DNA from: an uncultured Thermodesulfobacteriota bacterium
GTDB lineage: Bacteria > Desulfobacterota > Anaeroferrophillalia > Anaeroferrophillales > Tharpellaceae
Length of the DNA stretch: 45,984 bases
Assembly (NCBI GenBank): GCA_964623985.1
Contig: CAZUXG010000004.1
Coordinates: forward strand, 1 to 45,984
Direction: 5' to 3'
The first letter of the stretch is position 1. Every line of letters starts with the position of its first letter. Positions 20,253 through 23,453 of this stretch are shown piece by piece. Made by a program: the position numbers and the translations under genes. A model generated the notes under the pieces. The model was given only the letters and a program-made list of their open reading frames with translations. It was not told the DNA's origin and did no database searches.

Positions 20253-21026
20253 GTGAATAGTGAATCATGGATTGTCATCCCGGCCCGTTATCAGGCGCGG
20301 CGTTTCCCGGGTAAACCTCTGGCCTTGCTCCATGGCCGGCCGATGATTGCCTGGGTGCTTGAGGCCTGTTTGGCGGCCCGGCAGGCCCGGGAAGTGGTGG
20401 TGGCAACCGATGATCAACGGATTGTCGATGTGGTGCATGCCTGCGGTGGACATGTCGAGATGACCGCCGACTATCATAAGAGTGGCACCGAAAGGCTGGC
20501 TGAGATTGCTGGGCGCTATCCTGAGGTGAAGTGGTTTGTCAATGTTCAGGGCGATGAGCCGGGAATCGATCCCCGGTTGATTGATCGTGTTATCACGTTG
20601 CTGGCGGAGAGGGACAATCCTGATCTGATAGTCTCGGCGGCTACCTCTTTAAGAAACCCGGATGATTATAGGTCGCCTCATGTTGTAAAAGTAGTAGTTG
20701 ATCTTAAGAGCAAGGCTCTCTATTTTTCTCGTTCTCCGATCCCCTTTTATCAGGATGAAAGTCTCGGTATTCAGGCCCTTAAAGATGGTTATTCGGGAGT
20801 CTGGCAGCATCTTGGAATATACGGTTATAGTGGTAGTTTCTTACGTAATTTAAGTGGTCAGCAGTCTGGAGTTTTAGCGGCGGCTGAGAATCTGGAGCAG
20901 TTGAACTGGGTTGAAAACGGCTACCCAATTGAAATTCTAGAATGTAATTCCCCCTGGTCAGGTATTGATACGCCAGAAGAGTTGGAGCGTTTTTCCTCTA
21001 AATGGTCCGGAACTATTGGCGGATAA
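20253..21026 (+). CDS. kdsB: 3-deoxy-manno-octulosonate cytidylyltransferase
   Basis: IPARYQARRFPGKPL, VATDD, SGTER, NVQGDEP, ALYFSRSPIP, LEQL. Confidence 0.95.
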   Translation: MNSESWIVIPARYQARRFPGKPLALLHGRPMIAWVLEACLAARQAREVVVATDDQRIVDVVHACGGHVEMTADYHKSGTERLAEIAGRYPEVKWFVNVQGDEPGIDPRLIDRVITLLAERDNPDLIVSAATSLRNPDDYRSPHVVKVVVDLKSKALYFSRSPIPFYQDESLGIQALKDGYSGVWQHLGIYGYSGSFLRNLSGQQSGVLAAAENLEQLNWVENGYPIEILECNSPWSGIDTPEELERFSSKWSGTIGG

Positions 21027-21043: not shown

Positions 21044-21328
21044 ATGAGTGACTGGATTGAAATTGAAACGGATAGCAAACATATCAAGCGGGAGCGCGAA
21101 AAAGCTCGTCAATTACGTAACAGCCAGTATTGGCAGCGACTTTTAAACAATGGTATATGCCATTACTGTGGGCGGTGTTTCTTACCTCATGAGTTGACGA
21201 TGGATCATGTCGTTCCCCTCTCCCGGGGGGGGCGCAGTGTGAAGGGTAATATTGTTCCTTGTTGTAAGGAATGTAATAATAAGAAGAAATACAAAACCCC
21301 TGTGGAGATGATTTTGGAGGATTTATAA
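21044..21328 (+). CDS. Small HNH endonuclease family protein
   Basis: CHYC...TMDHVVPLSRGG...NIVPCCKECNNKK. Confidence 0.9.
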   Translation: MSDWIEIETDSKHIKREREKARQLRNSQYWQRLLNNGICHYCGRCFLPHELTMDHVVPLSRGGRSVKGNIVPCCKECNNKKKYKTPVEMILEDL

Positions 21329-21747
21329 TGGGGCATGTAGTTAATAAAGCTGATATTGAGGTTGCGGTGGGCACGGAACCGTTCACGGTGGCCGAAATAT
21401 ATTCTAAATTTATTGAAAAGGAGAGCGTTGCCACCGGTACCGTAGTTATGCATCATGGGAGCGTCAAATATCCGGGCAAAGTCCTGTCCGATTTTCGCGT
21501 AGTCAGCCTTGACGCGCTGGTTGACGATGTTTGTGAAGGTTTGCGAACCATAGCCGTTGATGCGGCTTGGCATTTTATTTTGCATCGTATTATTATCCTG
21601 CATCGTTTGGGATTGGTTGAACGAGGGGGTGATGTTCTGCTCGTTATCTGTTCAGCTGCGACCCGTCGTGATGCTTTTGATGCCTGCTCATGGATTGTCG
21701 ATGAGATAAAAAAAGAGCAGCTCATAACCCTGCGTGAGCTGCCTTAG
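21328..21747 (+). CDS. MoaE-like protein (divergent molybdopterin synthase large-subunit fold)
   Basis: HRLGLVERGGDVLLVICSAATRRDAFDACSWIVDEIK; lacks the terminal PxWKKE motif. Confidence 0.75.
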   Translation: MGHVVNKADIEVAVGTEPFTVAEIYSKFIEKESVATGTVVMHHGSVKYPGKVLSDFRVVSLDALVDDVCEGLRTIAVDAAWHFILHRIIILHRLGLVERGGDVLLVICSAATRRDAFDACSWIVDEIKKEQLITLRELP

Positions 21748-21789
21748 GAGACTATTTGAGAGAACTTGCTACTCTCGGACAGTCTCTTA
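21745..21789. repeat. Imperfect hairpin starting at the moaE-like stop codon
   Basis: taggagactatttgagag / ctctcggacagtctctta (with G:T pairs). Confidence 0.5.
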
Positions 21790-21919
21790 GTACCCTTTAG
21801 CGTTGAAATTTAACTTAAAACGGTCATAATCTAGATCAAGTTAAGATGTTTTAAAAAGCCAAGATTCTTTGTTTAGTCCGGCTCTGCTGGGGGGCTAAGC
21901 AAGAGTTATTAGGCCCCGT

Positions 21920-22351
21920 TCAAAAAGCCCCAAGTTGGCATGGTGATATCTTGATTTCGAGGGCTTCGCAGGCAGCTGTAATTTCGGTTTTTTTCAGGTT
22001 TAAGTGAGCGGCTATTTCCCAGGCCTTATGGCATGGTAGGCGATGGTCCTTTAGCCCATCTGCTAAGGCTTTGCAGAGCACTGGGTCAGGGGTCGTCGCG
22101 GCTTCTATTTTCTTCTCTTTGCGGCCTTGTCCAAAAAGTCCGAGCTGGCATCCGGTCAGGCGGAGTTCAAGAAGATCTGCTGCGCGACCGATTTCGGTTG
22201 GCGAAAAACCGGTTTCCTGGGCCAGTAGATGAGCCTTGATGCAGCTCAAGTGACCGTTATCAGCAGCGCTGATTAATTTTTGTCTTAAAGTCTCGGGGAT
22301 CTGAGAGTCGCTGTGTTTGGCGGCATAGTGGCCAGTGTTAAGGTGGGTCAT
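21920..22351 (-). CDS. Hypothetical protein with two tandem Cys-containing repeats ending CQLGxF
   Basis: LSCIKAHLLA...LRLTGCQLGLFG and LPCHKAWEIA...IKISPCQLGAF; ATG at 22351 overlaps the upstream TAA. Confidence 0.8.
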   Translation of the reverse strand: MTHLNTGHYAAKHSDSQIPETLRQKLISAADNGHLSCIKAHLLAQETGFSPTEIGRAADLLELRLTGCQLGLFGQGRKEKKIEAATTPDPVLCKALADGLKDHRLPCHKAWEIAAHLNLKKTEITAACEALEIKISPCQLGAF

Positions 22352-22542
22352 TAGTCGGTTTTCCTCGTTTCTGTTTGCTTTGCCTTCTTGAAGTTTCCTG
22401 ACGTTTGGTGCTTCTTTTTTTCCGGGCCGGCCACCTGGCAGGCGGGTTTCATTCAGGTCGAGATGCCCATTTTGGGCAGGATATGCGCCTGTAGCAGATA
22501 CCAAGCAACGAAGATTCCCAGAATTATCAGTATCTCTTTCAT
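22351..22542 (-). CDS. Candidate small membrane selenoprotein, 63 aa, Sec at codon 30 (not in the ORF track)
   Basis: MKEILIILGIFVAWYLLQAHILPKMGIST-[TGA 22455-22453]-MKPACQVAGPEKKKHQTSGNFKKAKQTETRKTD-TAA; RBS aagg; SECIS-like hairpin; TAATG coupling to the next gene. Confidence 0.7.
22426..22443 (-). promoter_or_regulatory. Putative bacterial SECIS element
   Basis: mRNA GCCUGCC-AGGU-GGCCGGC (6 GC pairs, one U/C mismatch); loop starts 16 nt after UGA with G at loop position 2. Confidence 0.6.
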
Positions 22543-22623
22543 GATTTATGCCTTTTTGGTTTTGAAAATAGTTTTCTTGGTATTTTTCAACAGCTTATTT
22601 AGAAGATAGGCTTTTTCGTTATT

Positions 22624-23208
22624 TTAATCAACCTTGTAGACGTTGATTTTTTTTCTGCCCCATTCCAGGGCCCGGTTGTGAGAGTCAAAAAAGAGATCAA
22701 GTCTTTTTTCTCCTTTGATAGCCGAACCACGATCCTCAACTACACCATAGCCGTATCCCGGAATATAGAAACGGGTACCGAAGGGGTGATAATTGGTATC
22801 TGCCGCCAGGGTTCCGTCGCGGGAGGCCCATAGCCAGGGAAAGAAGAGGCACCAGGGCTGGTGTAAAAGTTTGGGATTGGGTTCTCTGGGTACGGTACCA
22901 CTGGCAGTTAGCCCGCTATACTCCTGACCCCGATTTTCCCCGGTTGTGATAGTGCGGTTCCAGAAGTCAAGCTTGAGGAATTTCCAGCTGCCCCTTTCCC
23001 AGCCACAGCATTGCCCGCAACCGCAATAGGCCGTGGTTTCCATCCGCAGCGCCTTGCGGTGGCCGCCACAGCCGTAGAGGGTGAGCGTGGTCAGGGCGAC
23101 GAGAATGATTAATGGAAGATATTTATGTATGGTGGAGCTGTATAAATGGAAGATTGATAGTGGTTCTTTTTTAATCTCTCTTGTGATGGTGTCGGTTTCG
23201 GAATGCAT
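22624..23208 (-). CDS. 3D-domain (MltA-like) protein, probable lipoprotein
   Basis: TTAYCGCGQCCGW, LAAD...PFGT.FYIPGYG.GVVEDRGSAIKG..RLDLF...ALEWGRK; LYGC lipobox-like motif. Confidence 0.85.
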   Translation of the reverse strand: MHSETDTITREIKKEPLSIFHLYSSTIHKYLPLIILVALTTLTLYGCGGHRKALRMETTAYCGCGQCCGWERGSWKFLKLDFWNRTITTGENRGQEYSGLTASGTVPREPNPKLLHQPWCLFFPWLWASRDGTLAADTNYHPFGTRFYIPGYGYGVVEDRGSAIKGEKRLDLFFDSHNRALEWGRKKINVYKVD

Positions 23209-23453
23209 GAGTTTGACTCCGTGAAAATAAGCTTGAAATAGTTATTTATCCTACCTTTTTTACTTGTCATTGCAGATAGTTACAGGTATGATTAAGACTT
23301 TGCTAAGAAGTCAAAAACTAAATTGTAAAGGTGCCCGGGTCTCTAAGGTGTAGTCTGAGCGTTTTGGCGATAAGAAAAGTTTTTTTATGTGTTCAACATG
23401 ATTGTTTCAACCAAATAGAGGGATATACGGTTGTCTGTCAAGGAGACAATAAT

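Follow-up and report, generated by a model that had tools for sequence, protein, structure and literature searches.

Bacterial genes that are decoded by SelB through a selenocysteine insertion sequence (SECIS), such as fdhF of Escherichia coli, share an in-frame UGA, a hairpin within about 10 nucleotides (nt) of it and a small loop with G or GU, and their families hold pairs of selenocysteine (Sec, U) and Cys homologues. A May 2026 review of the prokaryotic selenoproteome collects 119 families and subfamilies, each with a domain identifier (PMC13188914, Table 1), and a small single-helix protein with a U-x4-C motif is absent among these 119. A comparable layout is known from eukaryotes in selenoprotein S, a single-pass anchor followed by a cytosolic tail in which Sec is paired to a nearby Cys; a Sec188-Cys174 selenosulfide has been proposed for it (PMC3628699). 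Here we analysed a stretch of 45,984 nt from an uncultured Thermodesulfobacteriota bacterium (GenBank assembly GCA_964623985.1, contig CAZUXG010000004.1, positions 1 to 45,984; hereafter the window). Its minus strand from 22542 to 22351 very probably encodes one 63-residue selenoprotein of a widespread family, with UGA30 decoded as Sec by SelB via a downstream hairpin; that the gene is a genuine selenoprotein is, judged by comparison with its relatives, close to certain. We found no description of this family, which appears to be an unrecognised selenoprotein family of the established SECIS-decoded Sec/Cys kind.

The frame opens at an ATG (22542-22540), runs through 29 codons encoding MKEILIILGIFVAWYLLQAHILPKMGIST, meets a TGA at 22455-22453 and continues for another 33 codons, encoding MKPACQVAGPEKKKHQTSGNFKKAKQTETRKTD, up to a TAA at 22353-22351; the final A of this stop also opens the ATG of the gene that follows (22351-22349), so that the junction reads TAATG. 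The list of open reading frames (ORFs) under translation table 11 contains two pieces only, 22453..22542 (29 aa) and 22351..22452 (33 aa), and the gene is therefore missing from the plain ORF track, as the preliminary description of this DNA had remarked. The coordinates which that description gave for the ATG, TGA and TAA, the AAGG ahead of the start and the TAATG overlap proved exact to the base on re-reading.

The conservation of this frame was investigated in 401 genomes drawn evenly from the window's phylum, of which 340 are of high quality and which represent 254 genera. A search with the peptide, Sec being written as Cys, found a homologue in 19 of 19 further genomes belonging to the window's family, and many more families of the phylum gave matches as well; every significant match had one in-frame TGA. 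Thirty loci were studied in detail; they start with ATG (GTG in one) after a good ribosome-binding site and have U at codon 29-31. A profile built from these 30 loci matches 185 of the 401 genomes (150 of the 340 high-quality genomes and 120 of the 254 genera). TGA is present in 150/150 of the profile matches listed, a tally that covers these 150 with 40 further matches beyond them, and no Cys form occurs among the matches listed; Cys forms should have scored at least as well, because the profile has Cys at the Sec column. The alternative that UGA30 is an ordinary stop, ending a 29-residue membrane peptide that is followed by a separate tiny ORF or by untranslated RNA whose hairpin serves another purpose (attenuation, stability), fits poorly with this constancy, as a plain stop would drift among TAA, TAG and TGA. 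In 45 distinct loci (47 motif matches minus two false ones), the partner Cys stands at U+5 in 41 and at U+6 in one, and it is conserved although the four residues between vary (MKPA, MRPA, MKDA, MSEA, AAPS, LKDS, FKNS), which again argues against a stop. The frame is open for at least 14 codons past the TGA in 45/45 loci, and the other two frames have medians of 0 and 13 codons. An ATG directly after the TGA in 35 of the 45 loci would suit a restart, but the other 10 lack it, and five of them have GCT, TTC, CAA, GTT or ATC there. The homologues that the preliminary description had proposed as a check, with TGA kept at codon ~30 and conservation continuing past it, are thus at hand, and these orthologues show what is expected of a selenoprotein, an in-frame UGA with protein conservation on both sides.

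Relatives with Cys in place of Sec were found in protein databases and in genomes, and C-x4-C homologues are plentiful in Planctomycetota as well as in metagenomes. A word-index protein search with the read-through peptide gave no relatives, whereas an exhaustive profile search of 1.84 billion representative proteins did find some, with 1236 matches at E ≤ 1e-3 and 33 at E ≤ 1e-10. We classed 152 relatives, namely the best 150 of the 1236 plus four cluster members minus two without a motif match. The Sec column holds Cys in 75 of them (69 also with Cys at +5), a stop exactly there in 40, Trp in 28 and something else in 9; the Trp is a TGA called under a Trp-reading code, and 25 of the 28 have Cys at +5. 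That gene callers end 40 of the 152 exactly at this codon is in keeping with an ordinary stop. The public protein sets carry the family in corrupted form, as a 29-residue truncation (40/152) or with Trp for Sec (28/152), a few entries having Gly, Arg or Ser. A profile of 17 Cys forms was further run against a species-genome collection, yielding 192 confirmed places, and the best 80 of these 192 loci were studied. Their Sec column reads Cys in 49 (locus L123 being counted as a Cys form), TGA in 30 and Tyr in one. By their labels, most of the 80 belong to Planctomycetota; other sources are metagenome-assembled genomes (MAGs) labelled Myxococcales/Polyangia, Syntrophobacterales, Geopsychrobacter, Deltaproteobacteria and Gemmatimonadaceae. 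The Cys peptides mentioned in the preliminary description (LPxxGxxTCMxxxC) therefore do exist, Cys standing at the Sec column in 75/152 database relatives and 49/80 genome loci. C30 and C35 are invariant in 59 Cys forms, and Sec and Cys versions can be almost identical around the site; such near-identical pairs are the classic signature of a selenoprotein family. In the Cys forms the ORF runs on without a break and the Met that follows the site is retained, and this Met is therefore a residue and not a start. The scheme of two tiny ORFs, which had been named earlier as the competing possibility, fails on these continuous Cys ORFs and on the 10/45 TGA forms without a following ATG. The Tyr form, at the planctomycete-type locus L083, retains the remaining motif MSGAC and may be a decayed or functionally altered member. 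A cluster look-up of ten relatives returned no names and no accessions.

A further line of evidence is the RNA hairpin behind the UGA. In the window, the stem is formed by 22443-22437 with 22432-22426 around the loop AGGU (22436-33), with 16 nt from the UGA to the loop. Counted from the U of UGA, the loop begins at nt 20. In 28 sequences including the window's family (class A), the stem is made of nt 13-19 with 24-30 and closes a loop AGGU or AGUU; 83.2% of its cells are paired and 4 of the 7 pairs are altered on both sides, the pair 18-25 being C-G in 21 sequences, U-A in 7 and unpaired in none. The covariation score of class A was reached by 0/500 shuffles, although the 3' partner slid by -3 still pairs at 73.5%; at the other slides tried as controls, pairing is far lower. 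A further 13 sequences (class B) pair nt 19-25 with nt 31-37 around a loop AGGAU; the paired cells amount to 83.5%, 6 of the 7 pairs are altered on both sides, no shuffle reaches the score, and slid partners pair at 22-40%. The Sec forms of other phyla show a third arrangement, with the hairpin immediately after the Cys codon. The compensatory changes recode the protein, from Ala to Thr in class A and from Arg to Gln in class B, and the residues after Cys35 therefore seem largely dictated by the RNA. Counted strictly (an uninterrupted stem of at least 6 bp with a loop of 3-7 nt starting 19-31 nt from the UGA), the stem is found in 24 of 29 TGA forms versus 6 of 49 Cys forms of the same collection, and a stem of at least 5 bp with G in the first two loop positions in 25 of 29 versus 6 of 49. 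This tie of the hairpin to the TGA forms speaks against an ordinary stop. Among the 45 loci of the window's phylum, 22 have a stem by the strict definition, because the class A mismatch breaks the stem. The comparison of minimum free energies between Sec and Cys forms was not significant (p = 0.11), and Rfam at gathering thresholds reported no family anywhere in the window. Across the family, by comparison, a G-containing apical loop lies 16-37 nt past the UGA and its stem covaries. The proposal of a SECIS made in the preliminary description has accordingly gained a hairpin that is conserved, covarying and enriched in TGA forms over Cys forms.

Relative to genes of the SelB/SECIS type, the candidate loop at 16 nt past the UGA falls inside the 16-37 nt range that had been quoted for the bacterial model, and the loop presumably resembles that of fdhF with its unpaired U. 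The candidate differs from these genes in its short stem of 7 positions with one mismatch, which lies wholly inside codons 34-39, and in having two or three hairpin classes at differing offsets within one protein family. The window's genome (G000; 1.89 Mb in 111 contigs, 93% complete) offers a direct comparison, since the selD of this genome (G000:C20:7816-8748, locus L010) is a selenoprotein gene too, interrupted by a single in-frame TGA (context SGUAAK). Beginning 13 nt past that UGA codon is a hairpin of 8 bp, the geometry of which is close to that of the candidate, with the loop starting at nt 25 versus nt 20. The Sec machinery, whose presence had been proposed as a check, was found in the same genome, with selB (390.8 bits), selA (589.3 bits), selD (358.4 bits) and tRNA-Sec (69.7 bits) all above curated cut-offs. 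By eye comparison of the tables, 12 gene-bearing genomes have no selA match, and 11 of these 12 have selB above cut-off. In each of four genomes (G034, G144, G161 and G374), two distinct selB-like matches exceed the curated cut-off (in G034, for example, with 384.5 and 315.3 bits); they may represent a duplicated or specialised SelB.

Several observations weigh against decoding of UGA30 as Sec. The stem in the window pairs at 6 of 7 positions with one U.C mismatch; its stem position, AGGU loop and 16-nt spacing are as given in the preliminary description. The window hairpin alone is no more stable than shuffled sequence (z = -0.03), a point in favour of an ordinary stop, and the case beyond chance therefore rests on the comparative data. 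The partner Cys is missing in 3 of the 45 loci. As selA was found in 370 of the 401 phylum genomes, co-occurrence with the Sec machinery discriminates nothing, and one exceptional genome (G412, 85% complete) has the gene with neither selA nor selB above cut-off. A sequencing-run search for the locus returned no RNA run and four DNA runs, only one of them with more than half of the words. Some termination at the UGA is also expected under selenium shortage. Taken together, the comparison of sequences indicates that the gene is real, that within a Sec/Cys family its UGA acts as a sense codon, and that the RNA hairpin is coupled to this UGA, and from these we infer SelB-dependent insertion at UGA30.

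Family members are predicted to be very small, with about 47-75 residues. Kyte-Doolittle hydropathy averaged over 19 residues peaks at residues 4-22 (mean 2.25), and AlphaFold2 with a 30-row alignment predicted one helix at residues 2-21 (block pLDDT, the predicted local distance difference test, 83-89) and no confident structure beyond, with pLDDT <50 at residues 45-61; both agree with the single hydrophobic helix before the Sec that had been noted earlier. W14, L17, L22, P23, G26, T29 and U30 are invariant or near-invariant, and position 18 is Gln or Asn in most members. The predicted layout of the family is an N-terminal membrane helix with Trp and Gln/Asn, the motif LP[KR]xG[IV]xT-U/C-x4-C and a disordered hydrophilic tail. 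Residues 24-44 hold 5 K/R versus 1 D/E, and the N-terminus has K2 and E3; across the 45 loci, the tails contain 17.9% Lys, and the part after U is net positive in 33/45. The positive-inside rule would place both the tail and the U-x4-C pair at the cytoplasmic face of the membrane. We consider it probable, as a model, that the protein is membrane-anchored with its motif on the cytoplasmic side. The features of the locus are collected in Table 1.

Table 1. Features of the candidate selenoprotein locus in the window
Feature	Coordinates	Strand	Basis
Candidate complete selenoprotein ORF, 63 codons plus TAA stop, UGA as Sec at codon 30	22351..22542	-	Translation; orthologues of like architecture in 185/401 phylum genomes
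Shine-Dalgarno-like AAGG, 9-12 nt 5' of the ATG	22551..22554	-	Orthologues have GGAG/AGGAG at that place
Predicted single hydrophobic (transmembrane) helix, codons 4-22	22477..22533	-	Kyte-Doolittle and AlphaFold2
In-frame UGA, probably read as selenocysteine U30	22453..22455	-	One in-frame TGA in 150 matches listed and in 30/30 detailed loci
UGC, Cys35, putative Sec partner in U-x4-C	22438..22440	-	Cys at U+5 in 41/45 distinct loci
SECIS-like hairpin, 7-position stem with one U.C mismatch, AGGU loop	22426..22443	-	Class A alignment of 28 sequences
Tail of codons 40-63, rich in Lys, with low conservation and predicted disorder	22354..22425	-	Composition across 45 loci; pLDDT
Following gene of 143 aa with two repeats, four invariant Cys and a CQLGxF motif	21920..22351	-	Neighbour conserved only within own family

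The protein was further compared with described families. The window's protein matched no Pfam-A or NCBIfam release 20 family at E ≤ 1, and ten scanned relatives, two of them TGA forms called as Trp, gave chance-level matches only (E ≥ 0.027, far under cut-offs). Among 120 listed of 543 database relatives of the Cys forms, no Pfam domain was recorded and the only name was 'hypothetical protein'. YgaP-like/DUF2892 proteins (PF11127) are small membrane proteins ending in a Gly-x-x-Thr-Cys-type motif. They occur, like the present family, beside rhodanese, ArsR and TauE genes, and two nearest-neighbour ORFs of Cys-form loci are themselves PF11127 proteins; membership was rejected, as neither Sec nor Cys forms gave a match to the hidden Markov model at E ≤ 1, and PF11127 has two helices versus the one predicted here, where the Cys spacing is U/C-x4-C. 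A MerT-type mercuric transport selenoprotein (PF02411) was likewise rejected for want of a Pfam match. The tail of selenoprotein S is disordered, and selenoprotein K is comparable; both differ from the present family in being proteins of the eukaryotic endoplasmic reticulum with about 90-190 residues, Sec near the C-terminus and a SECIS placed within the 3' untranslated region; the likeness concerns a possible way of working and not family membership, and homology is not expected. The nearest spacings of Sec motifs in Table 1 of PMC13188914 are those of TsoA (LULAxC, NF045695) and TsoB (UxxxxU, NF045694), which were set apart by motif and model alone, with no NCBIfam match at E ≤ 1. The available main text of PMC1976440 (Olavius symbionts), PMC12013277 (deep-Sep), PMC13326102 (BSepDB) and the Haft and Gwadz preprint contains no such protein; OS_HP2 of the Olavius paper and the deep-Sep hypothetical proteins DG, DW and DF were set apart solely via NCBIfam models where these exist, and OS_HP2 is undefined.

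Within the window's own family, the gene lies between a gene for a 3D-domain protein (PF06725) and a 143-codon gene in 18-19 of 19 loci. The 143-codon gene is downstream in 18 of the 19; in 8 loci its start codon shares one base with the stop, and in 9 others it begins no more than 24 nt from the first base of the stop codon. The 143-residue product has two tandem repeats bracketed by invariant Cys (C37/C68 and C107/C138), each ending in CQLG-x-F. It has no Pfam or NCBIfam match, its 42 relatives are 'hypothetical' wherever named, and its AlphaFold2 model (mean pLDDT 71) found no PDB match at E ≤ 0.001; it may be a lineage-specific partner of the selenoprotein. When 21700-23400 was scanned for promoters and terminators, no signal exceeded what shuffled sequence gives, and the two minus-strand genes had no terminator between them. 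On the far side of the 143-codon gene, 21328-21747 (+) resembles by eye a MoaE-type molybdopterin synthase subunit and 20253-21026 (+) a KdsB-type CMP-KDO synthetase, and the wider neighbourhood is apparently housekeeping (LysRS, EF-P, IspH, Cmk, AroQ). Elsewhere in the phylum, beyond the own family, gene order around the locus is not kept: in 26 loci, the 87 ORFs that flank the gene contain 105 Pfam families, none of which occurs in more than 3 ORFs.

The suggestion for a function comes from the best 80 of the 192 genome loci. A metallo-beta-lactamase/rhodanese fusion of about 490 residues, of the persulfide dioxygenase (PDO) type by Pfam and weakly matched in NCBIfam by the model for Blh, a bifunctional sulfur transferase/dioxygenase, is directly upstream on the same strand in 19/80 loci. 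TauE/SafE is directly downstream in 13/80, all 13 of which also have the upstream fusion, and 3 of these 13 are TGA forms (L081, L089 and L101). This one-strand embedding of the gene between PDO-rhodanese and TauE, seen in 13/80 loci, is found neither in the window nor in 20 regions of the phylum. A relative of type III sulfide:quinone reductase (SQR) follows in 11/80 loci. These relatives lie two genes downstream of the small protein and score 251.7 bits (L085:6155-7363) on NCBI's selenoprotein-subtype model, below the cut-off. The present Sec/Cys family thus shares operons with an enzyme family already known to use Sec. Other genes in the 80 loci encode thioredoxin (17), ArsR (8), HlyD adaptor (19), RND pump (12) and S-adenosylmethionine (SAM) methyltransferase (13), and the typical order is ArsR, PDO-rhodanese, small protein, TauE, SQR, methyltransferase, HlyD and RND. 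The Pfam tally for 150 of the 155 nearest-neighbour ORFs is headed by Rhodanese (19), Lactamase_B (18), Thioredoxin (13) and TauE (12), and at least one sulfur-pathway marker is present in 37/80 loci. In the BigR operon, this set of enzymes plus TauE serves the detoxification of H2S to sulfite, according to the available portion of PMC5823870. The same enzyme set (Blh or CstB, TauE, SQR) of BigR/cst-type operons surrounds Planctomycetota Sec and Cys members of the family; the differences are that such a small protein is absent from the operon descriptions in that portion of PMC5823870 and that the window's gene stands outside any such operon.

The operon context in Planctomycetota suggests, at the level of gene order, a membrane-tethered selenol/thiol site that handles sulfane sulfur. 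A role in handling sulfane sulfur or sulfite is plausible at somewhat less than even likelihood. More specifically, we put forward, as a tentative proposal, that this is an overlooked family of very small membrane selenoproteins that would act as a membrane selenol/thiol relay for sulfane sulfur, a functional analogue of selenoproteins S and K. In such a scheme, UGA30 would be decoded as Sec by SelB under the guidance of the hairpin 9-27 nt downstream, and the selenolate would attack sulfane sulfur, as persulfide or polysulfide, that arises in the membrane or at its surface. The adduct would then be resolved by Cys35, or a selenosulfide would form and be reduced by thioredoxin; the sulfur would be handed to rhodanese/persulfide dioxygenase, and the product sulfite would exit through TauE.

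A number of points count against this function. It is drawn from operons of distant relatives that are about 35-45% identical over helix and motif, and the context tallies refer to related genomes, mostly Planctomycetota, which are not independent samples; 43 of the 80 loci have no sulfur-pathway marker. The neighbours of the gene in the window are the 3D-domain protein and the uncharacterised Cys protein, with no sulfur-pathway genes. In 20 regions of ±8 kb from 20 families of the phylum, no match to PDO-rhodanese, TauE, SQR or ArsR was found; one region (L168) had thioredoxin, HlyD and RND, and another a methyltransferase. The window's genome does contain a homologue of PDO-rhodanese on contig C2 (255.7 bits) as well as TauE genes on C11 and C36, all unlinked to the window, and a type III SQR query gave no match in it. 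Because no context is conserved in the window's phylum, the likelihood of the sulfur relay is kept well below even.

Two other functions would leave the gene a genuine selenoprotein. In the first, the U-x4-C pair would be a site for soft metals or metalloids (Hg, Cu, Cd, As, Se, Te) feeding efflux or detoxification at the inner membrane face. It is established chemistry that a selenolate paired with a thiolate is a classic ligand for soft metals, and several known bacterial selenoproteins handle metals (PMC13188914, Table 1); the HlyD/CusB-type adaptors, RND pumps, ArsR regulators and SAM methyltransferases counted among the 80 loci would fit, as would the CDF cation-efflux gene directly upstream of the Sec form at L127 and the thioredoxin, HlyD and RND genes around the gene at L168 in the phylum itself. 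The tight and consistent flanking genes, on the other hand, are PDO-rhodanese and TauE with SQR next, and RND/HlyD, where they co-occur, usually stand further downstream in the same clusters. The ArsR-family regulators of such operons sense persulfides, as stated in the available part of PMC5823870, and neither MerT, MerP nor an HMA domain is among the 25 most frequent Pfam families of the nearest neighbours. We regard a soft-metal site as rather unlikely.

In the second, the protein would have no chemistry of its own; as a small subunit it would assist or regulate a membrane transporter (TauE-type exporter) or a respiratory complex, with the U/C pair as a redox switch. Many bacterial single-helix proteins of 30-60 residues are subunits of transporters or oxidases, which counts for this possibility, as do the polar Q/N18 and the invariant or near-invariant Trp of the helix, typical of helix-helix contacts, and the TauE genes directly downstream in 13/80 loci. 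In the TauE proteins encoded beside it (L077:3464-4288 and orthologues), one loop contains three conserved Cys within a DGPxCQRD context, of which C140 and C154 are invariant and C128 is almost so; this loop could supply a partner thiol for the small protein. The prediction of a complex between the L077 TauE and the adjacent Cys-form peptide scored 0.00 and speaks neither for nor against binding. An accessory subunit appears unlikely, since the 20 regions of ±8 kb from the phylum show no adjacent transporter, with the exception of the one RND locus. As for UGA30 as an ordinary stop, the truncated database entries, the frequent ATG after the TGA and the insignificant single hairpin are outweighed by the constancy of TGA, the continuous Cys ORFs, the conserved Cys at +5 and the coupling of the hairpin to TGA forms, and this reading is very improbable.

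As a selenoprotein, the family would be notable for its very small size, membrane anchor, unusual U-x4-C spacing, high prevalence and absence from the annotations and family libraries checked. A 63-codon gene that is cut by UGA into 29 and 33 codons escapes pipelines and catalogues built on known families and ORF-length limits, and public sets hold it only as 29-mers or with Trp for Sec. The family spreads over roughly half of the sampled phylum genomes as well as Planctomycetota, Myxococcota-labelled and other MAGs; with 185 of the 401 genomes, it would rank among the more common selenoproteins of the phylum, and, if the reading is true, the selenoproteome counts for these organisms are each short by one. 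The family would also provide a compact natural system for SECIS evolution inside a coding region, in which the amino acids that follow the Cys change together with the stem, as Ala/Thr in one hairpin class and as Arg/Gln in the other. If the relay is true, it would act at a step of sulfide oxidation or detoxification for which the available portion of PMC5823870 describes no membrane carrier. The operon link to SQR, PDO-rhodanese and TauE provides a concrete hypothesis for small Cys-motif membrane proteins of unknown function, and it may offer a reason for the cost of Sec at this position in sulfide-dwelling organisms.

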